The notes under the pieces were generated by a model. The model ran no database searches. It had not been told where the DNA came from and worked only from the letters and a program-made list of their open reading frames with translations. This document shows, piece after piece, positions 663 through 27,106 of a stretch of 34,175 nucleotides of DNA. The position numbers and the translations under genes were made by a program. The stretch lies in the NCBI GenBank assembly GCA_049472355.1, contig JBLIRP010000039.1, forward strand, positions 1 to 34,175, in the 5' to 3' direction. Every line of letters starts with the position of its first letter. Position 1 is the first letter of the stretch. The stretch comes from a bacterium (GTDB taxonomy: Bacteria; SZUA-182; DTGQ01; JAFGSM01).

Positions 663-2872
663 TTCTTTTCGTCTTTTTCTACCATGGGATGGAGCCTCAC
701 CAGCATCTGCCGCGCCTGGACAAAATCGGGCTTTATATCGAGGGCGGCCTGGAATTCATCGATGGCATCCCTGAGGTTATTCCGTTTGTAATGGATGAAT
801 CCCAGATTAAAATGGGCTTCGGCACTCATGGGATCATGCTCTATTGCCTGTTTAAAGGCATGTATGGCATCATCGAGCCTGTCCTGTTGAAAATAGACAA
901 GACCGAGAAAATAGTGGGCGCGGCTGAAATCCGGCCTTATGGCGATCGCCTTGTTCAGCATATCCAGGGCATCGGGAAGGCGCTGGGTCGCCTGATACAC
1001 GGAGCCCAGACTGAGCAGGGCCATGGTGTCGTTCGGGTCCTTTTGCAGTACGGCGTTTGCCTCGGACACGGCCCTGTCAAAATCCCCCAATCTCTGGTAG
1101 ACCACCGAGAGGTAGTTATGGGCGCTCGTGTCATCGGGATCAAGCTCCAGGACCTTCTGGAAGAAATCCCGGGCATGTGACCACTCCCCTTGCTGAAAAT
1201 GATAAAGGGCCGTGTTGGTGTATGCCTCCTTGCACCGGGGGTTGAACTCGAGGGCCTTCTTGAAGGTGGCAAGCCCCTCCTCGTAGCGGCCCGCCTTCAT
1301 ATAGCTCACCCCGAGTTGAATGTAGATCCGCAGGTTCTCCGACTCCAGCTCAAGGGCCCTTTCAAATGCCTCGATGGATTTGGCATCCTCTCCCATTGCC
1401 TCGTAGATATGGCCCAGGGTGACATAGGCATCGGTATTTTCGGGGTGGATGTCCAATACCTTTTTAAAGAGGGGCAATGCCTTATCATAGTGCGCCTCGG
1501 CGAAATAGGCGGCGCCCCTGTCGATATACTCCAGGACCTTGATCATGTCCTTGGGATCGGGATATTCCTTCCTCTCTTCACCGCTGGTGGGCGTCCACAC
1601 GTATCCCAGGCTCCTCATCTTCTCCATGGTCTCCTTATCCATCGCCACCTGCTGCGAGGGGGCCTCGCCTTCCGGGTCGATTTCCTGGACCACCTTTGCA
1701 AATCGCTGGGACATGACCTGGGCCTGTTCCTTCTCCTTCTTGAAGAGGTTTGACTTCTCCTCAGGGTCCTTGTCCAGACGATAGAGTTCCTGCGTGGGGG
1801 CCTCGATGTACTTCCATGTCTCGTTCCTCAATCCCTTGAGAGGACTCCAGTTATGGGTGGACTTCGGATAAAACGTTTCGCAGTAAAGGTCGAGTTCCCG
1901 TGCGGGCCCCTTACCCAGCATCATTGGGGATAGTGAAACACCCTCCATATGTTCGGGTATCTTGTATCCGATCATCTCCAGGATCGTGGGGGTGATGTCG
2001 ATCAACCGAACGAGGCGGGGGATGCGTTTTCCGGCAGGGAGCATGCGCGGGCAACTGATGATCATGGGCACCCATATGGTCGAGTCGTAGATGAAAATCC
2101 CGTGGGTCTTTTCATGGTGGTCCCCGAGGCCCTCCCCGTGATCGCCGGCGAACAGGATCAGGGTGTTATCGGTCAGCCCGAGGCTGTCCATTCTGTCGAA
2201 CAGTTTCCCAAGCCAGTAATCGGCGTATGCGATCTCCCCGTCATAGGGGTTCTTTCTGTAGGCACCATCGTAGGGGGGAGGAGGCGCCCAGGCATCGTGG
2301 GGATCGAAGTAGTGAACCCACAGGAAAAAGCCCTTCTCCCCTACCCCGTCCAGCCATTTCATGGCCGTCCTGGTGACGGTTTCCGCACGCCTTTCCTTCT
2401 GTTGCAGCTTCGGCTCCACATCGGTCTCCAGGTCGTCATTGTAGGTGTCGAATCCCTGGTCAAGGCCGAAGCGTCGGTCAAGTACATAGGCGGACACGAA
2501 GGCGGCGGTTGTGTACCCGCGCTCCTTGAGCATTTCCGGGAGGGTTACCACTGAATCCGGCAGTGCATAGGTGGCATTGTTCCGAATGCCGTGCGAGGGG
2601 GGATAGAGCCCCGTGAGCATGGAGGAATGGGAGGGGAAGGTTATCGGCACCGGGGTGAATGCCTTCTCAAAGAGACACCCCCTTTTTGCCAGGCGATCGA
2701 TGTTCGGCGTTTTAACCTTCTTGTATCCGTAACATGCGATGTGATCGGCGCGGGTGGTATCGAAGGTCACCAGGAGGATATTCAATCGCGGGGGCTTTTC
2801 CGCCCCCGCGATTGAACATATAAGAAGAAAAAAAAGGGGGACGATGATAACGCGTCTTACCTTGTCCATCAT
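659..2872 (-). CDS. Exported sulfatase-like hydrolase/transferase with C-terminal TPR array
   Basis: Signal peptide; NILLVTFDTTRADH, TPVPITFPSH, HYFDPH and GDHGE motifs; roughly the last 290 aa are TPR repeats (e.g. AYVTLGHIYEAMGE, AHFNLGFIHYKRNN). ATG at 2872 overlaps the upstream stop, with GAAGGAG upstream. Confidence 0.92.
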   Translation of the reverse strand: MMDKVRRVIIVPLFFLLICSIAGAEKPPRLNILLVTFDTTRADHIACYGYKKVKTPNIDRLAKRGCLFEKAFTPVPITFPSHSSMLTGLYPPSHGIRNNATYALPDSVVTLPEMLKERGYTTAAFVSAYVLDRRFGLDQGFDTYNDDLETDVEPKLQQKERRAETVTRTAMKWLDGVGEKGFFLWVHYFDPHDAWAPPPPYDGAYRKNPYDGEIAYADYWLGKLFDRMDSLGLTDNTLILFAGDHGEGLGDHHEKTHGIFIYDSTIWVPMIISCPRMLPAGKRIPRLVRLIDITPTILEMIGYKIPEHMEGVSLSPMMLGKGPARELDLYCETFYPKSTHNWSPLKGLRNETWKYIEAPTQELYRLDKDPEEKSNLFKKEKEQAQVMSQRFAKVVQEIDPEGEAPSQQVAMDKETMEKMRSLGYVWTPTSGEERKEYPDPKDMIKVLEYIDRGAAYFAEAHYDKALPLFKKVLDIHPENTDAYVTLGHIYEAMGEDAKSIEAFERALELESENLRIYIQLGVSYMKAGRYEEGLATFKKALEFNPRCKEAYTNTALYHFQQGEWSHARDFFQKVLELDPDDTSAHNYLSVVYQRLGDFDRAVSEANAVLQKDPNDTMALLSLGSVYQATQRLPDALDMLNKAIAIRPDFSRAHYFLGLVYFQQDRLDDAIHAFKQAIEHDPMSAEAHFNLGFIHYKRNNLRDAIDEFQAALDIKPDFVQARQMLVRLHPMVEKDEKK

Positions 2873-3249
2873 CAAAACATATACTCCTTCATAAATGGAA
2901 TTATGGCCTGTCGCGGGGCGATATTGTAGGAAGAGGCATAATTGGCGACCAGAGCCCCGTAATAATCCGCCAGCGGGTCATGGGCATACAGGAACGGGGT
3001 AGTCTGGGCCATGTCAAAAAATTTGAGGGCGTAAACCAGATAGCTATACGATCCGAGTGCAGGCATATAACAATAAGGATACCCTGAGAACCGGGAGAGG
3101 TTCATGAGAGAAAAAGGGGTATATCCCGGAAAACCGTACCCCCACAGTGAATACTGGGCTGAGGCAACACCGCTGAATAAAAATGCCAGTACGCCTGCGA
3201 TCATAACAATACAAAGGCCCATCACACAAAACCTCGTCAATCGTGTCAT
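2872..3249 (-). CDS. Small secreted Tyr/aromatic-rich hypothetical protein
   Basis: GGGGGGA SD; signal peptide ending ASA|QY; Tyr/Phe/Pro-rich mature part; stop overlaps the sulfatase start. Confidence 0.75.
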   Translation of the reverse strand: MTRLTRFCVMGLCIVMIAGVLAFLFSGVASAQYSLWGYGFPGYTPFSLMNLSRFSGYPYCYMPALGSYSYLVYALKFFDMAQTTPFLYAHDPLADYYGALVANYASSYNIAPRQAIIPFMKEYMF

Positions 3250-3675: not shown

Positions 3676-4251
3676 TTACCATGACGTAGCGGCCAGAACC
3701 CCCGGTGTCCCGTACACATCATAATAGGTCAGAAGCGAAAAGGGATCCACGCCCAGGGCATTGCCATACCCGAGCAGATAGTACTGATTGCTCAATTCAA
3801 AGAGATACAAGGCAAGCGAGAGCGGCGGCGGTTTAAGTATGGACCAGCCTAACGGCAATGCGATCGGAACCGGTGCACCTGATATCGGATCCAGCAAGTC
3901 AGGGGGTGGAAATGGCTTCAATCCGAAAAACACATCATAGTAGACAACCCCTCCGGGCGAATTATATAAAAGCCATGGATTTACGTACCCCATGGGCAAC
4001 TCGAATCCATTGGGATTGAATAGATACGTCGGCTGAACCGGCAGTATGGTACTGCTGGTCACCTCGCTCAACAAGGGCGTGGGAAGGCCGGTGAGCGGAT
4101 CGGGCGGGGAATAGACCGGAGACCACAGGGGCCACAGCAGATTATAGGGGGGCATGATCGCCCAATCTTGTGCCTGGGCCGGTGTGCCTTTGATTAACAA
4201 AAAGACCATCATCATGGTCAAGATCAGGAATAACCATCTTTTTCTCATCAT
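3676..4251 (-). CDS. Array paralogue P9 (subtype B), secreted Pro/aromatic-rich protein of unknown family
   Basis: AAGGAG SD; signal peptide AQA|QDW; PPYNLLWPLWSP, TILPVQP, YNSPGG, YLLGYGNALGVDP. Confidence 0.9.
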   Translation of the reverse strand: MMRKRWLFLILTMMMVFLLIKGTPAQAQDWAIMPPYNLLWPLWSPVYSPPDPLTGLPTPLLSEVTSSTILPVQPTYLFNPNGFELPMGYVNPWLLYNSPGGVVYYDVFFGLKPFPPPDLLDPISGAPVPIALPLGWSILKPPPLSLALYLFELSNQYYLLGYGNALGVDPFSLLTYYDVYGTPGVLAATSW

Positions 4252-4310
4252 TGTTCATCTCCTTAAACATAGATTAAGTCCGATTCAATTTCCATCAAAT
4301 CAATATGGAT

Positions 4311-4889
4311 CTAATATACGCCCACAGTGAGTGGGGGTATTCCCCAGAATTCTGCCGGTGTGAGCAGATTCGCAAGCGGCACCCCATAGATATTGGAATA
4401 CACCAGGTTTCCCAGGATGAAATGATAGGCATTGATCTCCTCAAACTCGATGGGCCCTAAAAGTGAATAGGCAAGGGGCAGGGGAATCGGTGACGGGGCA
4501 CCGGTCAAAGGACTCAACATGTAATCCGGAGGAAATGGTCTCATACCGTAGTATTGATCCCAGATCATGAGGCCGCCGCCGAGGGCCAGAGGGGCATTAT
4601 AGGCCAGCCATGGCAGCGGTCCGTTATTCGCCTCCGGAGAGGCCGGGTCCCATATCATGGCCGGCTGAACCGGAAGTATCGTCATTCGGGTCAGGGCGTT
4701 GACCAGGGGGGTCGGCAGGCCGGTAATCGGATCCGGCGGAGACAGCGCCGGAGACCACAATGGCCACAATACGTTATAAGGCGGCAAGGCTGTCCAGTAG
4801 TCTGCCTGTGCATAGGTGAAAAACACCAGGCCCACCAGAACGGTCAGAATCATGATCAAAAATACATTCCATCTTTTTCTATGCATCAT
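4311..4889 (-). CDS. Array paralogue P8 (subtype A)
   Basis: AAGGGAG SD; AQA|DYW; PPYNVLWPLWSP, YNAPLALGGG, YSNIYGVPL. Confidence 0.9.
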   Translation of the reverse strand: MMHRKRWNVFLIMILTVLVGLVFFTYAQADYWTALPPYNVLWPLWSPALSPPDPITGLPTPLVNALTRMTILPVQPAMIWDPASPEANNGPLPWLAYNAPLALGGGLMIWDQYYGMRPFPPDYMLSPLTGAPSPIPLPLAYSLLGPIEFEEINAYHFILGNLVYSNIYGVPLANLLTPAEFWGIPPLTVGVY

Positions 4890-4977
4890 TATTCTCCCTT
4901 CAATTCAATGATCTCTTCCCTGAATCGGGGATTATTTCATTCATTCATTCAACGGAGTCCCTCCCAAGATAAACACC

Positions 4978-5562
4978 TTACAAAATAATGGGTGTCGTCG
5001 GGACACCGGTACGCAGCACTGGTCCCCAGATATCAAAGGGCTGTAACAGGCTCAGGAATTCCAGGCCGCTGAGTCCGAAGGTAAGGGCGTAGTAGATGTT
5101 CGCCATGGGCACGTAATATTCCCATTCCCCTGATGCATAGGGTGCCAACAGGGTGGGTGCCAATGGCAGAGGAATCGGTGCGGGTGCACCGGTCAGAGGA
5201 TCCAGCATATAGCTTGGCGGCCAGGGATTGATGCCATACGCTTCATGATAATACAACAGCCCTGAGCCGAAGGCAGCGGGCGTATTATAGAGAAGATAGG
5301 GCACCGGTTGGCACGGGTCCCAAACCAGACCGGGCTGGACCGGAAGTACCGTATTCCTGGTCAATGAACTGACCAGGGGTGTGGTGAGGCCCGTGACCGG
5401 ATCAATGGGTGACAATCCGGGAGACCAGAGGGGCCACAAGACATTATAGGGTGGCATGATGGTCCAGTACTGGGCCTGAATACTGATGGCACAAACAAGA
5501 CACAATGCCGCCATAAAGGTCATCATGAGTATAAGGCTTCTGCAGTGCTTTGACATATTCAT
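4978..5562 (-). CDS. Array paralogue P7 (subtype C)
   Basis: GGAGGG SD at 5567-5572 favours ATG 5562 or 5556 over the TTG at 5574; IQA|QYW; YNTPAAFGSG, YALTFGLSG. Confidence 0.9.
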   Translation of the reverse strand: MNMSKHCRSLILMMTFMAALCLVCAISIQAQYWTIMPPYNVLWPLWSPGLSPIDPVTGLTTPLVSSLTRNTVLPVQPGLVWDPCQPVPYLLYNTPAAFGSGLLYYHEAYGINPWPPSYMLDPLTGAPAPIPLPLAPTLLAPYASGEWEYYVPMANIYYALTFGLSGLEFLSLLQPFDIWGPVLRTGVPTTPIIL

Positions 5563-5626
5563 TTGTCCCTCCAAACCTCATTTCATTTCAATAAAACCAG
5601 CTCTCATTAACCAAAGGCAGATATTG

Positions 5627-5713
5627 ATCATCCACCGATCACCTCCCGGTAGTAACAATAATTGTTTTTCCATTGCAAAGAGAATGGTATGTATCATCCA
5701 TCGATCACCTCCC
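5627..5713 (-). repeat. Two 21-bp direct repeats (5627-5647, 5693-5713), each a perfect extended SD plus a start codon
   Basis: Minus strand GGGAGGTGATCG(A/G)TGGATGAT twice, one mismatch, 66-nt period. Confidence 0.8.
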
Positions 5714-5840
5714 CGAAGTCATAATGGTTGGTTTCCCGTGTGAATCGATTGAATGGCCATGGATCGGATATCGAACGTATGAACGTATTGTCGAATAGTT
5801 GCACGCGGGAAATGCCGCTGTTCCCTCACAGGGAACATAA

Positions 5841-6248
5841 TCAGCGCAGGATTATGGAGACCTCGATGAGCCGAATGTGTTGGGATGGAATATCTTCTAA
5901 GAATGCAATGGCTCTCTGGTAGGTATTTAATCCGACAAATTTGAGGTGCCCGGAAGGGTCAAACAGGCTTGCACATGACCTCAAAACGGCCGGAGGGGAA
6001 AGGAATGCATAATGTCTTCTTGATTCATTCTCATTGTTCAAATTCTCCAGGATATCAATAAAGTTCCTTGGTGCTGCGCCTGCATGATGATGGGGTATAT
6101 CTGATACAAAGATGCTGAGAAGATGACCGCTCAGATCAAGAAATTCGCATATCCCGATGTGCGTACAACGCACGTATTCAGGTGCATCGAAGGCACTCAT
6201 GAAAAAGAAAAGGCACACCAGGCATAGTACGAGGCATTTGCGACTCAT
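5841..6248 (-). CDS. Hypothetical ~135-aa protein with Cys-rich hydrophobic N-terminus
   Basis: ORF 5841-6308; likely ATG 6248 after AGGTGGG; MSRKCLVLCLVCLFFFMSAF...; no recognisable domain. Confidence 0.5.
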   Translation of the reverse strand: MSRKCLVLCLVCLFFFMSAFDAPEYVRCTHIGICEFLDLSGHLLSIFVSDIPHHHAGAAPRNFIDILENLNNENESRRHYAFLSPPAVLRSCASLFDPSGHLKFVGLNTYQRAIAFLEDIPSQHIRLIEVSIILR

Positions 6249-6744
6249 AGCATATCCCACCTGATTGGTATTTCGTGCCGGAGTCACGATTATTGTTGAC
6301 TCTTGCAAAATTGATCAAGGGTAATAAACCCTTACCATACGTATTACACGTGCAAAAGGGAAAGTGAGTAAAGCAGCAATGCCAAAATAACAGGAGAGCG
6401 GAGTTGTGAAAAGCAAATCGAAAAGGGCCGAGTGATTCAAACAGAACCCGTCTCAGCAGGAAAGGGGAGAGTAAAAGGACCGTATGCGTTGATGTTGAAG
6501 AGAACTGACCAGCAGGTGCCCCTTATCGCACGTTTGTCGAGCCGGAGCGATTAACTGAGTTCCCCTTCGGTCTCTTGTATGATGATTCTTTTATTACAGG
6601 ATGTCTGTGAGGCCGGAGCGGTTGTCATGCCATTATCTTGATACGGCATTGACCGCTCCTCTCATGAATGAAGTTGCTCCTCCTTCATAAAGGTGGATGC
6701 AGTGCTATCCGCTATAGAAACACTATATTCTTTTCTTACTTATA

Positions 6745-6773
6745 ATTATAAAAAATTTATTATACAGAGTCAA
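6745..6773 (-). promoter_or_regulatory. Sigma70-type promoter for the distal part of the array
   Basis: Minus strand TTGACT (6773-6768), 17-nt spacer, TATAAT (6750-6745), in an AT-rich tract. Confidence 0.75.
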
Positions 6774-6833
6774 GATTCTTTCTCATATATAATATATAGA
6801 CATCTTAAAAAAAGGAAGGATCCATTGGAATGG

Positions 6834-6876
6834 ATCGAAGTCCTGCGAGGGGATAGTCCCCTCGCAGGACTTCGAT
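6834..6876. terminator. Perfect 20-bp inverted repeat just downstream of P6 (terminator or 3' stabiliser)
   Basis: ATCGAAGTCCTGCGAGGGGA-tag-TCCCCTCGCAGGACTTCGAT; followed on the minus strand by a second small hairpin and a T run. Confidence 0.7.
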
Positions 6877-6909
6877 AGTCGTTCCCGGCCCCCCCTCTGC
6901 CGCCATTGT

Positions 6910-7488
6910 TCACAGAATCGGCAGGCCGAAGGCCTGTGCCGCGGTGACCAGTGATGAGGGATTGATTCCCAGGTTATACCCATAGGCAAGCATATAATAG
7001 AGATTGCCCAAATCATACAGGTAAGTGGCCTGGACGATGCCGAGTACGGCGGATGCCGTACTGAGCAGGGAGTAACCGGGCAGCAGGGTAATGGGAGCAG
7101 GCACCCCGGTAACCGAATCGAGGTAGCTTGCCGGGGGCCAGGGATTTATCCCGTAGAGCGTGTCGAAGAATACCAAACCGGTGGGGCCGTTATACAGGAG
7201 CCACGGCGGTATCGTCCCCAACATGGCCCACCCGAGTTTCGGCAGGGTGGGATCCCAGGCCATGACAGGCTGCACCGGGAGCACCGTGCTGCTGGTAAGC
7301 TGGGTCACCAGGGGAGTGGGAACGCCTGTAATAGGGTTCGGCGGTGAGTAGAACGGGGTGTAAAGGGGCCACAGGACATTGTACGGCGGCATGGCCACCC
7401 AGTTCTGTGCCGTGGCTCCCTGAATACTCACCAGGACTATGACGACAGCAACAGGTATGAGCACATACCATCTCTTTTGTGTAAGCAT
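6910..7488 (-). CDS. Array paralogue P6 (subtype B)
   Basis: AGGAGGA SD at 7497-7503 favours ATG 7488; ATA|QNW; YNGPTG, YMLAYGYNLGINP. Confidence 0.9.
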   Translation of the reverse strand: MLTQKRWYVLIPVAVVIVLVSIQGATAQNWVAMPPYNVLWPLYTPFYSPPNPITGVPTPLVTQLTSSTVLPVQPVMAWDPTLPKLGWAMLGTIPPWLLYNGPTGLVFFDTLYGINPWPPASYLDSVTGVPAPITLLPGYSLLSTASAVLGIVQATYLYDLGNLYYMLAYGYNLGINPSSLVTAAQAFGLPIL

Positions 7489-7522
7489 GGGCATTATCCT
7501 CCTTCTCCGCATAGTAGGCCTA

Positions 7523-8101
7523 TCAGATGGGCGGAAGGCCCCAGATCTGCGACGGAGTCAACAGATTGAGGAAGTCCGCCCCTGTTATCCCATAGTTGAG
7601 GGCATAGTTGACATTGGCAGTGGGAATAATCCACTCGAGTTCGGTCGTTGATGTGGGCAGCAGGAGCGAATAGGTTGTGAGAAGGGAGATAGGGGCAGGT
7701 GCACCGGTTATAGGATCCTGGAGATATGCCGGCGGGAATGGATTCATGCCGTAAATCTTGTCGAAAAACGCCATTCCGCCTCCGAATGCGAGAGGAATAT
7801 TATAGAGTGCCCAGATGTACCCCGAGGCATTCGAAGGGGAAGGGTCCCATACCACCATCGGCTGAACGGGGAGTATGGTATTCCTGGTAAGCGCAGGGAG
7901 CAGAGGGGTGGGTATACCTGCCGCATTCGGCGGTGACAGGACCGGGGACCAGAGGGGCCACAGCAGATTATAGGGGGGTATGGCAGCCCAGTTCTGGGCC
8001 CCCACCGTGGGGGTCATGAGCAGACCCAAGGCGGCCACGATAATACACATGACCAGTACGATAGAGGGAATAACGGGCAAGCATTTTCTCCTTTTATACA
8101 T
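7523..8101 (-). CDS. Array paralogue P5 (subtype C)
   Basis: AAGGAGG SD; VGA|QNW; YNIPLAFGGG, YALNYGITG. Confidence 0.9.
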   Translation of the reverse strand: MYKRRKCLPVIPSIVLVMCIIVAALGLLMTPTVGAQNWAAIPPYNLLWPLWSPVLSPPNAAGIPTPLLPALTRNTILPVQPMVVWDPSPSNASGYIWALYNIPLAFGGGMAFFDKIYGMNPFPPAYLQDPITGAPAPISLLTTYSLLLPTSTTELEWIIPTANVNYALNYGITGADFLNLLTPSQIWGLPPI

Positions 8102-8193
8102 ACGTAGACCTCCTTTTATGCCGAAAACATATCAACCATCGGCTCTCGGCAGCACAGGTCGGCTTTCATACGCATACACCATTTCCCCACGTG

Positions 8194-8763
8194 CTAAAAC
8201 ACCGCAGGAGGCAATGCGGAAAAGGGCGTATATCCCCAGATGTCTGCACTCGTTAAAAACGGTGTTGACGGCAATCCATATTGAGCGATGTACGTGAGAT
8301 TGGCCAAGGGTATAAAGTATTCAAATCCCTTCAAGGCAACGGGCAGATAGACGGACCAACCCAGAGGAAGTGCTATGGGATTTGGAGTACCGGTGACGGA
8401 ATCGAGCAAATAGGATGGGGGAAACGGATTGAGGCCATAGGTTATGTCAAAAAAAAGCATGCCGCCTCCAAGGGCCAAAGGGGTATTATAGAGGGCCCAC
8501 GGCAATGACCTATATGGATCCTTCACCAGGCCCGGCTGAACCGGTAATAGTGTATTACTTGTCAGGGAACTGATAAGAGGGGTCGCAAGCCCGGTGGCAG
8601 GATCAACGGGAGAAAGCGCCGGAGACCATAGCGGCCACATGAGATTGTAAGGCGGCAGTGCGGCCCAATACTGCGCATGCATGAGATCCGGCACGATCAT
8701 GCCTGCTATAACCAGTATGAGGAAGGCACATAGCAGGATTACCTTTTTCCTTTCTTTGTACAT
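8194..8763 (-). CDS. Array paralogue P4 (subtype A)
   Basis: GAGGTGA SD; MHA|QYW; YNTPLALGGG; ends LPPAVF like P1. Confidence 0.9.
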   Translation of the reverse strand: MYKERKKVILLCAFLILVIAGMIVPDLMHAQYWAALPPYNLMWPLWSPALSPVDPATGLATPLISSLTSNTLLPVQPGLVKDPYRSLPWALYNTPLALGGGMLFFDITYGLNPFPPSYLLDSVTGTPNPIALPLGWSVYLPVALKGFEYFIPLANLTYIAQYGLPSTPFLTSADIWGYTPFSALPPAVF

Positions 8764-8940
8764 AACTCACCTCATGCTATTGACTATGATGATTCATATC
8801 ATAGGATTATGTTCTTCTAAAAACCAGTCGACACGTTCATGATTCACCACTATACTACATAGATTCACACCCCCTTCGTGGAATGATTTGTTTATCTCCC
8901 ATTCTTAACCATCTATCCTTTTGAACTAAAGGGAAATCGC

Positions 8941-9513
8941 TTAAATCGCCGGAAAACCCCATAATTGTGCTGTAGTCAACAGATTGAGGTATTCCGGCCC
9001 TGTCAAGCCATACGTAAGTGCATATATCGCATTGGCAAGCGGAATAAAGAATGCCTCGCCGCCGCCTTGCGCACCCGTTACAGGCAAGAGGCCGTATGTG
9101 ACGGTAAAGGTAATCGGATTGGGGACGCCGGCAACGGAATCATAGAGATTCGGCGGAGGCCAGGAATTGAGTCCATACAGCCGATCAAAGTAGAGTAATC
9201 CTGAGCCGAAGGCGACGGGTGTATTGTAGAGGGCCCAGATGCTGGTGGTAGGATCCCATGCTATACACGGCTGAACCGGAAGGATGGTGTTCCTGGTGAG
9301 TTCGGTGACAATGGGTGTTGTGCCGCGGAGCACAAGGGGATCCCAATTGAAATCGGTAACCAGGGGTGGTGACCACAGCGGCCAGAGGACATTGTATGGC
9401 GGCATAAGTGCCCAGTTCTGGGCGCGTGCTGCCGGACTCATGAGCGATCCGAGGATGCTCAAGGCCATAACGGTAAGAAGCAGAAGAAAGAAACCTTTCC
9501 TTTTTCTAATCAT
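8941..9513 (-). CDS. Array paralogue P3 (subtype C)
   Basis: AAGGAGGAG SD; ARA|QNW; YNTPVAFGSG, YALTYGLTG. Confidence 0.9.
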   Translation of the reverse strand: MIRKRKGFFLLLLTVMALSILGSLMSPAARAQNWALMPPYNVLWPLWSPPLVTDFNWDPLVLRGTTPIVTELTRNTILPVQPCIAWDPTTSIWALYNTPVAFGSGLLYFDRLYGLNSWPPPNLYDSVAGVPNPITFTVTYGLLPVTGAQGGGEAFFIPLANAIYALTYGLTGPEYLNLLTTAQLWGFPAI

Positions 9514-9616
9514 GAGCGAATCTCCTCCTTTGAAACATACCTAATATAAGGATCTTGTATGAGCTTATGAGAACCCAATCTTTCGCTCAAAATCATTCCA
9601 TCCGGAAAAAGCCTCC

Positions 9617-10189
9617 TTATATCGGGGGAAGTCCCCACAAATCCCCGTACGTCAGCAATGAGGAAGGGCTAACGCCGAGGGAGTTGCCGTAAGCAAGCAG
9701 GTACGACAGATTTGCCAGATCGACCAGGTACTGGTATTCAACCGATATCCTCCAGGTGAACACGGGATATGTGCTCCACCCTGCCGGCAAGGCCAGAGGA
9801 ACGGGCGCCCCGGTGACGGAATCGAGCAGAGAGGATGGCGGCCAGGGATTCAGCCCGTACCACAGGTCGAAAAATTGCACGCCCACGGGTGAGTTGTAAA
9901 ACATATAGGGAAATACATCACCCATCGGCGACACAATGGGGGTGAGGGGATTAAGACCGAGGGCGGGTTGCACAGGAAGTATCGTACTACGGGAAAGCTC
10001 GGTGATCAGAGGGGTGGGCACCCCCGTAATCGGATCAGGTGGAGAAAGCACGGGAGACCACAGCGGCCAGAGTATATTATACGGGGGTAATGCCGCCCAG
10101 GTTTGTGCGGAAGCCACTGGGGTGATGAGCAGGCAGCCTGCAATCGCAATGGCCACTATAACGATCAAGAACTTTATTTTCCTAATCAT
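9617..10189 (-). CDS. Array paralogue P2 (subtype B)
   Basis: AAAGGAGGG SD favours ATG 10189 (MIRKIK); ASA|QTW; YNSPVG, YLLAYGNSLGVSP. Confidence 0.9.
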   Translation of the reverse strand: MIRKIKFLIVIVAIAIAGCLLITPVASAQTWAALPPYNILWPLWSPVLSPPDPITGVPTPLITELSRSTILPVQPALGLNPLTPIVSPMGDVFPYMFYNSPVGVQFFDLWYGLNPWPPSSLLDSVTGAPVPLALPAGWSTYPVFTWRISVEYQYLVDLANLSYLLAYGNSLGVSPSSLLTYGDLWGLPPI

Positions 10190-10208
10190 AGAACTCATCC
10201 CTCCTTTA

Positions 10209-10787
10209 CTAAAAAACGCTTGGCGGTAAAAGGGCAAGCGGCGTCAGTCCCCAGATATCTACAGCAGTCAACAGGCTGGTGAGAGGCACTCCGTATATAT
10301 TCGAATAATATGTATTGGCCAAGGGCAGATACCACTGCAGGTTCTTTAGATCGGTCGGCAACAGGAGCGACCATCCGAGGGGCAGGGCAATGGGGTTCGG
10401 AACACCGGTTGCGGAATCTACCAAATAGCTGGGAGGCCATTGATTCAAGCCATAAAAGACATCATAGAATAACAACTGATTCCCAAGCGCGGCCGGCGTA
10501 TTGTAGAGCAGCCAGGGGATTCCGGCACCACTCGGTTGAACAGGGTCCCATGCCATAACGGGCTGGATCGGGAGGATGGTATTCCTGGTGATCGCGTTTA
10601 CCAGGGGTGTGGCAAGACCGGTCACCGGATCAATGGGAGACAGGATGTCCGACCAGAGCGGCCAGAGGACATTGTAAGGGGGAAGGGCTGCCCAGTACTG
10701 GGCATGGACAAGGGAAAACCCCATCCCTATGACGATGAAGATAATAAGGGCACATAACACAATCGAATCATGTCTTCCTTTGTACAT
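10209..10787 (-). CDS. Array paralogue P1 (subtype A), first gene of the array
   Basis: GAGAGGTGA SD; VHA|QYW; YNTPAALGNQ, YSNIYGVPL; ends LPPSVF. Confidence 0.9.
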   Translation of the reverse strand: MYKGRHDSIVLCALIIFIVIGMGFSLVHAQYWAALPPYNVLWPLWSDILSPIDPVTGLATPLVNAITRNTILPIQPVMAWDPVQPSGAGIPWLLYNTPAALGNQLLFYDVFYGLNQWPPSYLVDSATGVPNPIALPLGWSLLLPTDLKNLQWYLPLANTYYSNIYGVPLTSLLTAVDIWGLTPLALLPPSVF

Positions 10788-11336
10788 AATTCACCTCTCA
10801 TAACTACCCCATTATCGTTATGTGGATCGAAACCTGATCGTTTAACCAAAAACGACCATCGTGCGCGCACTTACATCAATACACCCCTTTCTACAAAGAA
10901 ATCTGAATGAACTGGAAGGAAAAACATGGACAAGCCAATGCGTCGAATAGATCTCACCTCCTCACAAAAAGGATCTGAGGATATGCGTTATCCTCTATAC
11001 TTTGGACGTATCTATACATTCACACGTGCAGGTTTGACACGGCATACAAAGGAGCAGATACGAATTTTTACAAATCCCTCTATTACGGGAGCCCGCAATA
11101 AAAGATCACGCGCGATACATAAGGATTAAAGAAAGGACTGGATGCTGGCTGGAAATTGGAGGACGGAATGTGCGCAAGCGGTCAGATTATGCAAATGTTT
11201 TTCCGCACAGGAAAAGGACATTGAAACGCCTGCAAGACGATTGGACAATGAACAGGATTTATTTGAAAAAAAATCAAGGCCCCTTTTTTTGAATAGGCAT
11301 CAACCCCTTACTAAGGAGATAAATAATTATATCCAA

Positions 11337-21814: not shown

Positions 21815-22789
21815 ATGAAAAGATTACACAGAGGTACAGGGTATTCATGGCGGACGATAGTGGCTCGATCATTTCTCTCAATCATTCTCGCCTTCATCAT
21901 AGGGTTGACTTGGTCCTGCATAGCCCAGGCAGCAGTGTCCCCAAAGACCATGTCCATAAAGTACAAATCCGGGAAGGTCTCCGCTGTGCTGAAGGGTGTT
22001 CCCGCTAAAGAGGTGTACGAATATCTTGCAGAAAAGACAGGGGTTGAATTCGTTGGCCTCAATGAAATAACCGGAACCATTGAAGATCTTGAATTTAATG
22101 ACCTTACCCTTGAAGAGGCCATTCGCGCACTGGGTAAAAACAGCATCCTGATCTTTCGAAAGGAAGGTCCTCAGGATGAGGAAATGACCATCAAGAAGGT
22201 CATTTTTGTTGCCCATCAGCAAGAGGAACAACCAACACCACCACCCACCCCGGTGCAGCCCCCTCCACCACGGGAATTGACGCCCCCTGCTCCACCCGCA
22301 CCGCCTGCTCCACCAAGGCCTCCGGCACCTCCCAAGGCCCCTGAAGCACCCCCTGCAACCCCCGTCACCCCTCCCAGCGTCCGTCAGCCCGAGCCCCCCC
22401 CGCCCCCCCCGGTGCAAAGGCCAACCCCGCCCCCGGTACAAAGGCCAACCCCGCCCCCAGTGGTAACACCCGCACCCAAACCCAAGCCAAAGGATGCAAA
22501 TCTCGAAAAGGGGCTCAAATATTACGAGGAAAAGCGCTGGGACCTGGTAATAAAATATCTTAAGTTGTACCTGCAAAAGAATCCCGGGGATCAGGAAATC
22601 CAGCAGAAGCTCGACCAAGCGAATAAAAATTCCGACGAGGCGATCCGGCTTTACAAATTGGGTAAGACGGCTCAGGGCTCCGGCAATTTCTCCGAGGCAT
22701 ACGGGCATTACAAGGCAGCCTACGAACTCTATCCCCTCCTGTACGACGCCTGGGAGAGAATGCGAGCGATGCAGAAAAAGATACAGTGA
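21815..22789 (+). CDS. Exported protein: secretin-N0/STN-like domain, Pro-rich linker, TPR-like C-terminus
   Basis: Signal peptide; GVPAKEVYEYLAEKTGV...FNDLTLEEAIRAL; long poly-Pro linker with PPPVQRPT twice; helical TPR-like end. The domain call is by eye. Confidence 0.7.
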   Translation: MKRLHRGTGYSWRTIVARSFLSIILAFIIGLTWSCIAQAAVSPKTMSIKYKSGKVSAVLKGVPAKEVYEYLAEKTGVEFVGLNEITGTIEDLEFNDLTLEEAIRALGKNSILIFRKEGPQDEEMTIKKVIFVAHQQEEQPTPPPTPVQPPPPRELTPPAPPAPPAPPRPPAPPKAPEAPPATPVTPPSVRQPEPPPPPPVQRPTPPPVQRPTPPPVVTPAPKPKPKDANLEKGLKYYEEKRWDLVIKYLKLYLQKNPGDQEIQQKLDQANKNSDEAIRLYKLGKTAQGSGNFSEAYGHYKAAYELYPLLYDAWERMRAMQKKIQ

Positions 22790-23712
22790 ACCCCCACCAT
22801 ATCCTGATCATAGATGATGACCCCGTCAATAGAGAGGTCTACCGGGATCTTTTTCACATCCACGGATTTGAAACCAGGTATTCTACCGCGCCTTCTGAAG
22901 CCCTGGCACTCCTGGCTGATCGGGATTTTGGTGCGGTCATTATTGACCTCAGGATACCTTCTCAATCCATTATCGAGCTTGCATCCAAAATAAAATCATC
23001 CAATCCATTCTGCTGCACACTTATACTCACCGATGACGCATCCGCATCCTTTATCAAGAACGTCCTCAGGATCGGGGCTGAGGCTTGCCTCATCAAGCCG
23101 TTCATTCCCTTTCTCCTCCTGGAGACCTTGAAAAGAGGGATCGAAAGGGTGCGCCTCCTGCAGGAAAATGAACGTCTGAACAATGAATTCTCTTCTCTGA
23201 AGGGAGCCTACGGGATGCTCAAGGACTATTGCAGCCGATTGGAGTCAGGGCTCACCTGCGACCCCGCAAGCGGCCTGTTACACCCCAGGGCATTCATCGA
23301 ACGGCTCAAATATGAGGTAAGCAGGGCTCAACGACATGAGCATTGGCTCTCACTCACCCTCGTCCGCACAGGGATTAAAGCCGATAATGCACGGAATAGG
23401 AACGGGATTATGTGCCTGGTGGACCTTTTCAAAAAGGCTATCCGTACAGGGGATATTTTGGCACACCATGGGGCAGGCCTTGCCGTCATCATGCCCGAAA
23501 CCGACCTGGAAGGGGTTCATACATTCAGAAAACGAATAACGGAACGGATTGTTACCGGGAGCGGAAACGGAGAGGAACCTGCATCCCCTATGATGATCGA
23601 TGGTCTTGCCTTCGGCACCTCAACCTATCCGATTGATTCCCATCTCCCCAAACGCCTCGTTCGCATTGCAGCCTCCCGGTTACATACTGAACCGGTCTTG
23701 GTGAGACACTGA
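22786..23712 (+). CDS. Response regulator with degenerate GGDEF domain
   Basis: REC domain (IIDDD, IIDLRIP, LIKPF), coiled coil, then DPASGLLH...EVSRAQRH...IRTGDILAHHGAGLAVIMPET; GTGA overlap with the previous gene. Confidence 0.85.
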   Translation: MNPHHILIIDDDPVNREVYRDLFHIHGFETRYSTAPSEALALLADRDFGAVIIDLRIPSQSIIELASKIKSSNPFCCTLILTDDASASFIKNVLRIGAEACLIKPFIPFLLLETLKRGIERVRLLQENERLNNEFSSLKGAYGMLKDYCSRLESGLTCDPASGLLHPRAFIERLKYEVSRAQRHEHWLSLTLVRTGIKADNARNRNGIMCLVDLFKKAIRTGDILAHHGAGLAVIMPETDLEGVHTFRKRITERIVTGSGNGEEPASPMMIDGLAFGTSTYPIDSHLPKRLVRIAASRLHTEPVLVRH

Positions 23713-23746
23713 CTGATCCGGGCATCAGCACCCCGTAGACAGGTCT

Positions 23747-23793
23747 AACCAAACTTTGTCAGGCGGAGCGAAGCGCAGCTACTATGCTACCCT
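23747..23793 (+). repeat. Dispersed 47-bp intergenic repeat, copy 1
   Basis: 44/47 identical to 28588-28634; core AACCAAACTTTGTCAGGCGGAGCGAAGCG. Confidence 0.85.
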
Positions 23794-24307
23794 CCAGGTT
23801 ACCTTTAAGGCCCGGTTCAGGAACCGCCCCAACAAAACCGTCTTCGGCCGGAGCCAATCGCACCATGCAGCGCCAAATTGAGCAAGTAATCCAGCATATG
23901 TGATAATTTTTATTGCATATCATAAATTTTTTACTTCTCTGTATCATAAAACATCCACCGAGCAGTACGCTCAGCAAATCAGAGGTATCGACGTTTCCTT
24001 GTTTTCAAACGTGTTTCATGGTATCGAAAACAGGGATAGAGCCTATGGTGCCTGATTCGACTGGATCAGGTCCCTGGAATAGTTATTGCAGAGGAAATTT
24101 AGTGCCACGAGTTTTGATTACCTGGAATTCCCACTGTATGTCAAACTCCTTTGCTTCTGATAGAGGTAAATACCCCGCAGGCAAAAGGATAAAAGGGGAC
24201 GTGAAAGGAGGTGAGGGTTAGGGTAGTCATCCATTGTCTTTGCCTCGTTTTTTCTCATGTCTTTTCAATCTACAAAAATTTTTTGGTAAGGGTTATATAG
24301 GAGGTTA

Positions 24308-24619
24308 ATGGAAATGAGAAAGAGCGGAATTATCTCTTGTCTTATCGTCGTGCTTCTCATTGCTCTGTGCTTCTCCCTCATCGGACAGGCCAACGCCTAT
24401 TACGGGCTGTATGGCGGACTGTACGGCGGACTCTATGGGGGCCTCTACGGTGGACTGTACGGCGGCCTCTACGGTGGACTGTACGGAGGACTCTACGGCG
24501 GGCTGTACGGAGGACTCTACGGCGGGCTGTACGGAGGACTCTACGGAGGACTCTATGGAGGACTGTATGGAGGACTCTATGGAGGACTCTACGGCGGGCT
24601 GTACGGCGGCTGGTGGTAA
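24308..24619 (+). CDS. Secreted Gly/Leu/Tyr repeat protein: signal peptide + YYG(LYGG)17WW
   Basis: GGAGG SD; signal peptide ending ANA; all variation among the 17 repeat units is at third codon positions in this frame. Confidence 0.9.
   Translation: MEMRKSGIISCLIVVLLIALCFSLIGQANAYYGLYGGLYGGLYGGLYGGLYGGLYGGLYGGLYGGLYGGLYGGLYGGLYGGLYGGLYGGLYGGLYGGLYGGWW
24407..24610 (+). repeat. 17 x 12-bp coding tandem repeat (CTS TAY GGN GGN)
   Basis: Counted directly from the sequence. Confidence 0.95.
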
Positions 24620-24650
24620 GGGCACAATCAGCGCATAATGATCATTCAAA

Positions 24651-24690
24651 AACGAAGAAAGGCCTGAATCCATTCAGGCCTTTCTTCGTT
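24651..24690. terminator. Perfect 19-bp inverted repeat between the convergent LYGG gene and lon
   Basis: AACGAAGAAAGGCCTGAAT-cc-ATTCAGGCCTTTCTTCGTT; the right arm contains the lon stop codon. Confidence 0.75.
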
Positions 24691-27106
24691 CATCATTACT
24701 CAACGCCGAATCAATCGCCTCATCAACACGTTCTATGTAGGAAAACTTGATTCCCTTCAGGAGTTCCCTCGGGATCTCCTTGACATCCAGGCGATTCTGT
24801 GCAGGGAGAAGCACCCTTTTTATCCCTTCCCTTTTTGCGGCAAGCACCTTCTCACGAATTCCACCGACCGGGAGAACCAATCCGGAGAGCGTCACCTCCC
24901 CGGTCATGGCAATGTCCTTGTTCACCGGCCGTCCGGTCAGGGCGGATGTAATCGCAGTCGCAATTGCAACCCCCGCCGAAGGACCATCCTTCGGTATGGC
25001 GCCTGCGGGGATATGGACGTGAAGATCCATCTTTTCGAAGAATTCCTTTTCAATGTCGTATCTTTCCGAAACCGACCGTACAAACGAAAGGGCCGCCTTG
25101 ACCGACTCCTGCATGACCTCGCCGAGTTGCCCGGTAATTTCGAGCCCCTTTTTGCCGGGCATCTTGATGATCTCTATGAAAAGTATCTCTCCGCCGCTTT
25201 CGGTCCATGCCAGCCCGGTGGCAACGCCGGGGACCGAGGTCCTTCGTGCGGTCTCATGGAATACCTTCTTGGGGCCGAGAAATCGCGACACGTTTTTCGA
25301 GGTTACCCGGGCACGCTCCTGTTCATCGGTGGCGACCTTATAGGCCACCTTACGGCAAATCCGGGCAATTTGCCGCTCCAGGTTCCTCACCCCCGCCTCC
25401 TGGGTATAGTGCGAGATGATTGTTTCGATACCCTTGTCCTCGAACACGAGTTGACCCGATTTGAGCCCGTGGGCATCAAGCTGCTTGGGGACGAGGTACC
25501 GTTTGGCGATGGCCACCTTTTCCTCGTTGATATATCCCGGAAGAAACATCACCTCCATCCGGTCCCTGAGGGCAGGCTGGATCGGCTGGATGAGGTTCCC
25601 CGTAGCAATGAATATCACCTGGGAGAGGTCGAAGGGAAGGTCGAGATAGTGATCGATAAAGGACCTGTTCTGCTCGGGATCCAGTACCTCGAGAAGTGCG
25701 GACGAGGGATCACCGCGAAAATCAGCCCCCACCTTGTCGATCTCGTCCAGCATGAATATGGGGTTCTTGGTGCCCGCCCGTTTGATGCTCTGGATGATCC
25801 TTCCCGGGAGTGCCCCCACATAGGTGCGCCGGTGTCCCCGGATCGCAGCCTCATCATGAACCCCTCCCAAGGACATGCGTATGAATTTCCTCCCCAAGGC
25901 ACGGGCGATCGACTGACCGAGGGAGGTCTTGCCCACCCCGGGAGGACCTATGAAGCAGAGTATCTGTCCCTTTGCATCCTGCTTTAGTTTGCGAACGGCA
26001 AGGTACTCGACGATGCGCTCCTTCACCTCGTCAAGTCCGTAATGGTCTGCATCCAGGATGCTTCGTGCCTTTTTCAGATCCAGGTCATCAACGGTCGCCT
26101 CCATCCAGGGGAGGTCCAGTATCCACTCCAGGTAGGTGCGAATGACATAGTATTCCGGCGCAGCGCTCGGCATGCCTTCCATCCGCTTCAGTTCCTTATC
26201 CGCGACCTCCCTGGCCTCCTCCGGGAGATTCTTCTTGGCGATGCGGTCCATAAGCTCGATGACTTCAGACTCCTGAGAGCTTGCCTCACCGAGTTCCTTT
26301 TTGATGGCCTTCATCTGTTCCCTCAGGAAATACTCCCTCTGTGTCTTTGAAAGCTCTCCGGCGACCTCGGACTCGATCTTTCCCCCGATCTCGAGGATCT
26401 TCTCCTCCTTGTTGAGGATGGCCAGCAGGGTCTCCATCTTCTTCTCGAAGTCATCGATGGTCAAGATCCGCTGCTTCTGCTCCGGCTTCATATTCGTTAC
26501 CGAGGTGATCATATAGACGAGTGAAAAGGGATCGGAGATGTTCTCAACGGCAACGGCGATTTCATCGGGAAGGTAGGATGCAAGGCCAACCACCCCTTTG
26601 AACTTTTCGATGATCGCCCTTCTGAGGGCTTCCACACGGTCCGTCGCTGAAAAGGTCTCATCGAGGATCTCCACCCGCGCCATAAAGTAGCCGTCACTTT
26701 TATAGATCGCCTGCGCCTTAATCCGTTTCAATCCCTGGACCATCACCCGAAGCGTCTGATCCGGCATTCTCAACATCTTCAATATGCCCACGGCGGTGCC
26801 GATGGGATGGACGTCCTCCAGATCAAGCTCTTCCTTTTCTTCATGGCCCGATTTCAGGAGAAAGGCCGCCAGGATATTCGCCCCATCCATGGCCTTTTGA
26901 ACGCCGAGAATCGACCGCTTCTTGCCGATCACCAGAGGGGCCACCATGGAAGGGAAAATCACCGTATTAATGAGGGGCTGAAGGGGCAGGTCCGCTGGTA
27001 TATGCTCAAATCGCCCCCCTTGCCCTGTCTCGATATCCAGCAACTCCTCGGTTTCGTCTCCCTTGATTGCTATACTCGATTTTCCTTTACCATCATCCTT
27101 TTGCAA
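24674..27106 (-). CDS. lon: ATP-dependent protease La
   Basis: LON N-domain, GPPGVGKTS, GHRRTYVGALPG, LDEIDK, PKDGPSAG, GGIREK; TTG start after GGAGGA. Confidence 0.97.
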   Translation of the reverse strand: MQKDDGKGKSSIAIKGDETEELLDIETGQGGRFEHIPADLPLQPLINTVIFPSMVAPLVIGKKRSILGVQKAMDGANILAAFLLKSGHEEKEELDLEDVHPIGTAVGILKMLRMPDQTLRVMVQGLKRIKAQAIYKSDGYFMARVEILDETFSATDRVEALRRAIIEKFKGVVGLASYLPDEIAVAVENISDPFSLVYMITSVTNMKPEQKQRILTIDDFEKKMETLLAILNKEEKILEIGGKIESEVAGELSKTQREYFLREQMKAIKKELGEASSQESEVIELMDRIAKKNLPEEAREVADKELKRMEGMPSAAPEYYVIRTYLEWILDLPWMEATVDDLDLKKARSILDADHYGLDEVKERIVEYLAVRKLKQDAKGQILCFIGPPGVGKTSLGQSIARALGRKFIRMSLGGVHDEAAIRGHRRTYVGALPGRIIQSIKRAGTKNPIFMLDEIDKVGADFRGDPSSALLEVLDPEQNRSFIDHYLDLPFDLSQVIFIATGNLIQPIQPALRDRMEVMFLPGYINEEKVAIAKRYLVPKQLDAHGLKSGQLVFEDKGIETIISHYTQEAGVRNLERQIARICRKVAYKVATDEQERARVTSKNVSRFLGPKKVFHETARRTSVPGVATGLAWTESGGEILFIEIIKMPGKKGLEITGQLGEVMQESVKAALSFVRSVSERYDIEKEFFEKMDLHVHIPAGAIPKDGPSAGVAIATAITSALTGRPVNKDIAMTGEVTLSGLVLPVGGIREKVLAAKREGIKRVLLPAQNRLDVKEIPRELLKGIKFSYIERVDEAIDSALSNDERRKA

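Follow-up and report, generated by a model that had tools for sequence, protein, structure and literature searches.

The window analyzed here, a bacterial DNA stretch of 34,175 nucleotides (GenBank assembly GCA_049472355.1, contig JBLIRP010000039.1), carries a gene whose predicted mature product consists almost entirely of seventeen perfect LYGG units. The gene encodes the purest member of a large family of Gly/Tyr-rich, predicted secreted proteins that, among the genomes searched, is restricted to one uncultured bacterial order. Our best reading, in which we place about even confidence, is that the product is inducible and assembles with itself noncovalently, as an envelope or matrix protein in which the tract additionally serves to tether cargo. 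The chain likely self-associates with the similar tracts of dozens of paralogues, and the protective coat or matrix so formed would lie outside the inner membrane.

The open reading frame at 24308–24619 on the forward strand translates into 103 amino acids, comprising residues 1 to 30 (ending in QANA), YYG, seventeen unbroken LYGG units (residues 34–101), WW, and a stop. The mature chain of 73 residues (G35 Y19 L17 W2) has a mass of 7.4 kDa and no charged side chain, is 48% Gly, 26% Tyr, and 29% aromatic, and includes 18 XYG motifs in the form of LYG or YYG sites. A first-pass annotation of the window had described this same architecture, made only of G, L, Y, and W after a signal peptide, and the translation agrees, with the signal peptide called by eye. 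Note that signal-peptide calls throughout were made by eye and with a crude hydrophobicity rule. The strong Shine–Dalgarno sequence mentioned in that annotation is present as AGGAGG, but it lies only 3 nt before the annotated ATG at 24308 and 9 nt before the ATG at 24314, a spacing that favors the second codon. Because the orthologue in the related genome G002 is laid out alike and the Atlas record of the protein begins at residue 3, this spacing leads us to conclude that the true start is probably ATG 24314, which yields a protein of 101 amino acids with a 28-residue signal peptide. The A-N-A cleavage context recurs in homologues. The gene is flanked by a response regulator gene and by a convergent lon gene, and the hairpin noticed downstream proved to be a perfect 18-bp stem that was left uncalled by a terminator scan. 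The elements of the gene and its 3′ flank are as follows.

24299–24304, forward strand: ribosome-binding site AGGAGG, read from the sequence, 9 nt before ATG 24314
24314–24397, forward strand: predicted Sec signal peptide, called by eye, with a basic N-region, a hydrophobic core, and an A-N-A cleavage site; 28 residues (30 if counted from 24308)
24398–24406, forward strand: mature N terminus YYG, common to the family (YY begins 18 of the 82 low-charge secreted proteins defined below)
24407–24610, forward strand: (LYGG)17 tract, with 10 DNA unit types, all synonymous
24611–24619, forward strand: C-terminal Trp-Trp and stop codon, read from the sequence
24651–24690, unstranded: perfect 18-bp hairpin in the sequence, likely a terminator common to the convergent lon gene (fold of −29.4 kcal/mol for 24641–24700)

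The repeat is under protein-level selection. Its 17 units are encoded by 10 distinct 12-mers, and variation is confined to the four third codon positions. With 29% of single changes being synonymous, the chance that all changes would be so is 1.8e-4 if a lower bound of 7 changes is taken and 1.3e-6 for a spanning tree of 11 changes, and in the remaining open frames across the repeat the unit does not stay constant. The syntenic orthologue in G002, which sits between lon and the same response regulator (46% identical), holds 17 consecutive LYGG units of 7 DNA unit types, none of which is common to the window gene. The first-pass annotation had favored selection on the protein over recent slippage; its first part holds, given the wholly synonymous changes and the recoded orthologue, but the repeat is not free of slippage, as a 44-nt exact duplication with a 24-nt offset runs over units 7–10.

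Independent records also bear on whether the gene is real. A contig from a DNA run of a separate study covers positions 23746–24475, and contigs from one of two RNA runs (a library that may contain DNA) cover 24188–24475 and 24517–24636, in each case with 0 differences. A check of the repeat number had been called for at the outset, and its flanks and parts indeed match these independent contigs, but no record listed bridges all 17 units. One RNA contig begins at 24188, which is 15 nt before the second Shine–Dalgarno-like element discussed below, although contig ends cannot show transcript starts. The runs with at least one-fifth of the words are labeled as marine sediment, mangrove, estuary, soil, an unspecified metagenome, or a coded organism name, and this habitat evidence excludes runs with a small share of the words.

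In the sister genome G001, approximately 460 nt are gone from the promoter into the repeat, including the promoter end, the leader, the start, and most of the repeats, and the neighboring gene is 86% identical. What is left of the gene there is the following.

L091:1797–1880 (G001, contig C6): remnant comprising the last five units and WW, read from the sequence

A contig from run X3 carries the same junction letters as this deletion and is too short to accommodate the intact form. Accordingly, the deletion is probably genuine, with the reservation that G001 may itself derive from X3. Because the allele is also present in this independently assembled run, this member of the family appears to be individually dispensable. 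Searches with the neighbor gene as the query did not recover the orthologous locus in G003, G004, or G005. The loss in G001 might be taken to mean that the gene is artefactual, or a decaying repeat with no function, particularly as chance does generate short noncoding (LYGG)n repeats in DNA, as at 7 of 25 metagenome loci. We regard this possibility as scarcely credible in view of the exclusively synonymous changes, the fully recoded orthologue, the conserved promoter and leader elements, and the matching independent contigs. An assembly artefact, which the first-pass annotation had named as a finding that would refute it, is largely ruled out by the contigs, the synonymous changes, and the recoded orthologue.

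Two other features of this part of the window were observed. A short element at 23740–23790 is represented at the equivalent position in G001 by several tandem copies, and DNA runs show high depth and loose ends over it; it resembles an REP-like or miniature mobile repeat. In addition, the gene at 21815–22789 on the forward strand encodes a TPR protein that is predicted to be secreted and has a long Pro-rich linker, 51 nt of which are absent in related strains.

To place the protein among its relatives, we turned to its source genome (G000; 3.49 Mb, 87.5% complete). A window of 30 amino acids with at least 5 Tyr and at least 9 Gly is present in 56 of the 34,520 stop-to-stop frames, and 53 of these 56 have an N-terminal hydrophobic stretch by the crude rule (two of the other three start at a contig edge). 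A crude gene caller yielded 2552 genes, 729 of which bear a signal, and 83 of the latter encode mature chains with less than 8% charged residues, compared with a genome median of 24%. Removal of one small membrane protein left a low-charge secreted set of 82, including 29 proteins with at least 30% Gly plus Tyr and 27 PPYN proteins. The last residue is hydrophobic in 68 of these 82 proteins versus 189 of the 647 other signal-bearing proteins. The 29 Gly/Tyr genes are spread over 21 contigs, and 20 of them have no such gene as a neighbor. Thus, the description of the LYGG gene as standing alone is accurate for its locus but not for the genome, which holds a family of 56 tract open reading frames.

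The family has a narrow range. Protein matches were obtained in all 13 genomes of the order (3–29 in each), in 0 of 7 sister-order genomes, and in 1 of 11 others, where the match is weak. This outside-class match (G021, E 4.9e-4) was rejected, as the excised region lacks a tract open reading frame. A (LYGG)x4.7 DNA pattern search over 185,579 species returned 18 loci, 17 of which encode signal-plus-tract proteins in six bacterial assemblies; the 18th is a 31-residue frame in Paenibacillus. The search for a signal peptide followed by (LYGG)n that the first-pass annotation had proposed therefore recovers this build at 17 of 18 loci. The 21 homologues from protein collections are mostly of the same build, with 3 being unrelated frames, and 25 metagenome pattern loci comprise 15 of the family type, 7 short or unrelated frames, and 3 left unclassified. 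Two pattern loci on viral contigs were set aside as perfect DNA repeats with no signal peptide. Among homologues, the length and register of the tract vary freely (LYG, LYGGG, MYGG, and SSLYGG), with single-residue indels.

The protein has no evident catalytic or ligand site. Searches of Pfam (E up to 0.1) and NCBIfam gave no family for it, and the Atlas provided no usable feature match, only low-scoring structure rows and a model with a pTM of 0.22. An exact-sequence query of the protein collection retrieved nothing for either start. A sequence match in the PDB to a rhoptry neck protein was dismissed as low-complexity, compositional likeness. No published description of this family was found in the literature searched, which omits most subscription papers.

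We also examined the DNA upstream of the gene, which holds three elements.

23899–23924, unstranded: weak candidate sigma-54 activator site in the sequence, an imperfect inverted repeat (TGTGATA...TATCATA) kept in G001, approximately 150 bp upstream of the −24/−12 site
24075–24089, forward strand: sigma-54-type −24/−12 promoter site TGG-N8-TTGC, also present in the G002 orthologue at a comparable distance
24203–24213, forward strand: extended Shine–Dalgarno-like element without a start codon at normal spacing, in a predicted 5′ leader, kept in G002 and approximately 100 nt upstream of the gene

We take the TGG-N8-TTGC at 24075–24089 to be the sigma-54 −24/−12 consensus. When counts were limited to genes whose upstream space measures 120 nt or more, such a site preceded 13 of 68 low-charge secreted genes and 75 of 1690 other genes (reverse strand, 0 of 68 and 37), though paralogues and kin are not independent and the enrichment contrasts and P values for both upstream elements are accordingly overstated. 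It likewise precedes 18 of 42 tract open reading frames in the loci of relatives, with 1 on the reverse strand. An rpoN gene is present in 11 of the 13 genomes of the order, and 18 genes contain an activator-like motif. A scan for sigma-70 promoters produced 3 sites versus 1.2 expected, which is unconvincing, and an Rfam search over 23600–24800 returned only hairpin-level chance matches.

The second Shine–Dalgarno-like element takes the form of a strand-specific extended anti-Shine–Dalgarno match, AGG[AG]GGTG. It is found upstream of 18 of the 68 low-charge secreted genes versus 40 of the 1690 others (reverse strand, 0 of 68), and 13 of those 18 elements lack a start codon at normal spacing. 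Relatives carry it before 19 of 42 open reading frames (reverse strand, 0), in a list that includes two false rows. A start-less Shine–Dalgarno sequence approximately 100–130 nt upstream of a gene is reminiscent of the STAB-SD of the Bacillus thuringiensis cry3A mRNA, an element that blocks RNase J1 on a transcript whose product is made in bulk (PMC4113751). However, RNase J was found in 0 of the 13 genomes of the order (versus 4 of 7 sister genomes), and therefore the mechanism cannot be the same.

The tract also behaves as a module. Some family members are pure tract, others are fused to avidin-like barrel or protease-inhibitor domains, and in some a conserved QIPFLQIAP segment is joined to the tract; the tract can stand on either side of its partner. 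One cargo domain of 120 amino acids was modeled as an eight-stranded barrel (pLDDT 90.7), for which the best Foldseek match is streptavidin (E 1.3e-3, TM 0.68) and VIA-align gave a designed barrel (Z 14.4, rmsd 2.2, 107 aligned). The tract precedes the barrel in 23 of 28 copies. A Pfam scan of 18 tract proteins of the source genome identified alpha-2-macroglobulin, nine Kazal repeats, chagasin I42 (three proteins), Cthe_2159, a polysaccharide deacetylase whose tract is only marginal, and a weak LVIVD repeat; 10 of the 18 have no family. We infer that the five cargoes of protease-inhibitor type suit a protective layer, a fold or family as such showing no function. No exporter or enzyme family recurs among 201 neighbors of low-charge genes, nor does a dedicated chaperone. 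The barrel family itself (G000:C63:8371–9501 and other copies, alignment A1) is low in charge, numbers 89 representatives at E up to 1e-10, and has no Pfam match. Separately, the tract proteins of relatives at L006, L019, L037, and L114 end in a single-CxxCH domain, the motif of which suggests a putative heme-binding cargo.

The assembling envelope or matrix protein that we favor could operate as follows. Sigma-54 would turn on many genes of the family under a specific condition, and Sec export with signal cleavage would free a 7.4-kDa chain without charged side chains. Through stacked Tyr residues and Leu contacts, with Gly as the flexible spacer, the chain would then condense into an amorphous network with beta-sheet patches, wherein pure members would act as bulk filler and fused members would dock avidin-like barrels and protease inhibitors via the same tract. 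The Pro-rich PPYN proteins may be a folded component. Homologues differ freely in the register of their tracts, an argument that the polymer is amorphous and not registered. The cell is a diderm; its genome encodes BamA, penicillin-binding proteins, and GspD, a type II secretin present at full length in 10 of 13 genomes of the order, and the layer may lie in the periplasm or at the surface. One argument against a coat is that a charge-free chain would have to escape aggregation during its export, with no dedicated chaperone or exporter recurring next to the genes.

Several animal materials offer parallels. In squid suckerins, the M2 modules include GGLY and form amorphous material with beta patches of stacked Tyr, and coacervation of histidine-rich beak proteins is driven, via Tyr stacking, by four tandem GHGLY units (PMC11931252). 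The LYGG tract reads as tandem GGLY, a named M2 unit. In contrast to suckerins, however, the chain lacks the crystalline M1 module of Ala, Thr, Ser, and His, the Pro borders, and the His pH switch; the likeness is compositional only, there is no evidence of homology, and convergence is assumed. Chorion, cuticle, and lamprin proteins are secreted Gly-repeat chains of tough extracellular structures, and PMC4944945 treats such proteins as animal. In comparison, the LYGG protein has no folded chorion or chitin-binding core, and no cross-linking oxidase was found. Overall, the protein would work like known Gly/Tyr-rich structural proteins but belongs to none of these groups.

Animal Gly/Tyr coats are often cross-linked by dityrosine, and with 26% Tyr the LYGG chain might likewise be covalently joined into a hardened coat, as the first-pass annotation had suggested. 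We judge this to be a slim prospect because no multicopper oxidase, catalase-peroxidase, DyP, CCP/MauG, P450, or COX1 was found in the source genome, which is 87.5% complete, in searches whose controls matched. Searches for tyrosinase and animal-type peroxidase were blank, as were their controls, and nonenzymatic or radical-SAM routes to dityrosine are possible. Of the earlier proposal of a structural coat, then, a structural envelope or matrix protein is still the best reading, but the dityrosine part is poorly supported.

The chain might instead form an ordered cross-beta amyloid akin to a curli-like biofilm fiber. Curli-type amyloids have repeats with Gln/Asn ladders. The perfect four-residue period of the tract would agree with an ordered fiber, as would the suckerin peptide GLYGGYGV, which forms beta-sheet (PMC11931252). 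However, the mature chain is 48% Gly and has no Gln or Asn, the single-residue indels in homologue tracts would break a fixed register, and the Atlas model is of low confidence (pTM 0.22). Moreover, CsgG matches in the order are partial and weak, with the best in the source genome spanning 44–97 of 210 positions. An amyloid is thus improbable.

The closest bacterial precedent is the sulfur-globule protein, and by analogy the exported hydrophobic chain could wrap a periplasmic inclusion of sulfur or another hydrophobic deposit instead of coating the cell; nothing indicates that it passes the outer membrane. According to PMC10386293, Sgp proteins are exported by the Sec system, and they are repetitive, keratin-like, and extremely hydrophobic; a genome may encode up to six. 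SgpA/B/C/D of Allochromatium vinosum (PF17228) resemble the LYGG protein in being small, predicted Sec-exported, hydrophobic, repetitive, and paralogous, whereas the LYGG family lacks regularly spaced Pro and has dozens of paralogues and cargo fusions. The protein has no Pfam SGP match, and a genome-wide search with the SGP profile gave 0 of 31, although its controls were blank too. Furthermore, none of the 13 genomes of the order yielded dsrA, soxB exceeded the cut-off in 0 of 21 genomes, and COX1 was not found. Protease-inhibitor and carbohydrate-binding cargo would also fit a surface better. We therefore consider an inclusion-wrapping role to be rather unlikely, if the least so of the alternatives to a self-assembling coat or matrix.

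Returning to that coat or matrix, the window contains a second set of genes that may contribute to it.

3676–10787, reverse strand: nine tandem secreted, Pro-rich, low-charge PPYN paralogues, read from the sequence; a separate family and a possible partner in the same structure

The PPYN array protein has matches in 13 of 13 genomes of the order (34 in the source genome and 10–66 in each genome of the order) and in 0 of 18 outside. The first-pass annotation had linked the LYGG protein to this array, and the identical range (13 of 13 genomes) and the common upstream element bear this out. Start-less Shine–Dalgarno elements accompany the array at 10962 and 8875. No sigma-54 site was found upstream of the PPYN array in the window, and so co-regulation would rest only on the weaker Shine–Dalgarno-like element. 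Among five predicted PPYN models, one reached a pLDDT of 85.6 and the rest 65–69; a PDB comparison returned no structural match for the best model (best Z 2.4), though a new fold is not thereby proved. Where the array ends, positions 2872–3249 on the reverse strand encode a small secreted Tyr-rich protein that belongs to no Pfam or NCBIfam family, and a paralogue ends a second array on contig C52.

A broader proposal, which we offer as doubtful, is that the order spends approximately 3% of its genes on sigma-54-induced, self-assembling armor on the squid-suckerin principle, composed of a Gly/Tyr/Leu matrix and a PPYN scaffold, with the tract as a portable condensation tag for barrels and inhibitors. 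Known means by which bacteria retain exported proteins are lipid anchors, sortases, SLH domains, and amyloid. If one aromatic, Gly-rich tract served at once as material and as address, the principle would be a different one, amounting to extracellular protein sorting by a low-complexity tail. The family would give bacteria a counterpart of animal materials like sucker teeth, and a suckerin-type repeat used across an order as both material and tag is unexpected to specialists. As a natural and minimal sequence built from four residue types, (LYGG)17 can be synthesized for tests of condensation, cargo capture, and material properties, and the family supplies markers for an uncultured sediment lineage along with a first hypothesis about its envelope.

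Finally, the LYG motifs could be substrates for a radical-SAM splicease, an enzyme that excises tyramine to leave a ketoamide, in which case the protein would be a repeated-core precursor or be modified before export. The motif recognized by spliceases is XYG, with LYG and MYG among its forms, and PlpX is leader-independent (PMC11414181, PMC11626197). Like the spliceotide precursors PlpA, PcpA, RhaA, and RasA of PlpX-type spliceases, the LYGG protein has LYG motifs and a related enzyme in its genome. This enzyme scores 248 bits to TIGR03913 and 290 to TIGR04103, both below the cut-off; 10 of the order's 13 genomes carry it, compared with none of 18 outside. In contrast to those precursors, the LYGG protein carries a signal peptide in place of a leader, has YG followed by G and not by V or I, and is encoded with no maturase or transporter nearby, the splicease-like genes being on other contigs. 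The enzyme instead adjoins its own precursor-like open reading frames, which have a conserved FFExLExRxSTQ leader, absent from the LYGG protein, and no signal peptide. Their YG is followed by V or I at 44 of 74 sites (some frames being counted twice owing to overlapping loci), versus 7 of 591 in the secreted set. The enzyme was not found in G008, a genome that is 96% complete and has 16 tract matches. The repeated-core peptide precursor had been entertained from the start as a weaker alternative; its XYG motif is present, but the leader, the motif context, and an adjacent enzyme are absent, and splicease processing of the LYGG protein is accordingly very unlikely.

The splicease-like genes form a cluster of their own. 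At G000:C83:5387–10080 (L047) and G000:C91:23102–24772 (L048), an intramembrane-protease-like gene and an SPFH-radical-SAM fusion accompany the splicease-related radical-SAM enzyme, which is 67–97% identical across the 10 genomes of the order that carry it. The Trp/Ser/Gly-rich precursors of the same cluster bear the FFExLExRxSTQ leader and several XYG[VI] motifs, and orthologues are present in L056–L071. Judged by its gene content, this cluster looks like an undescribed spliceotide-type system.
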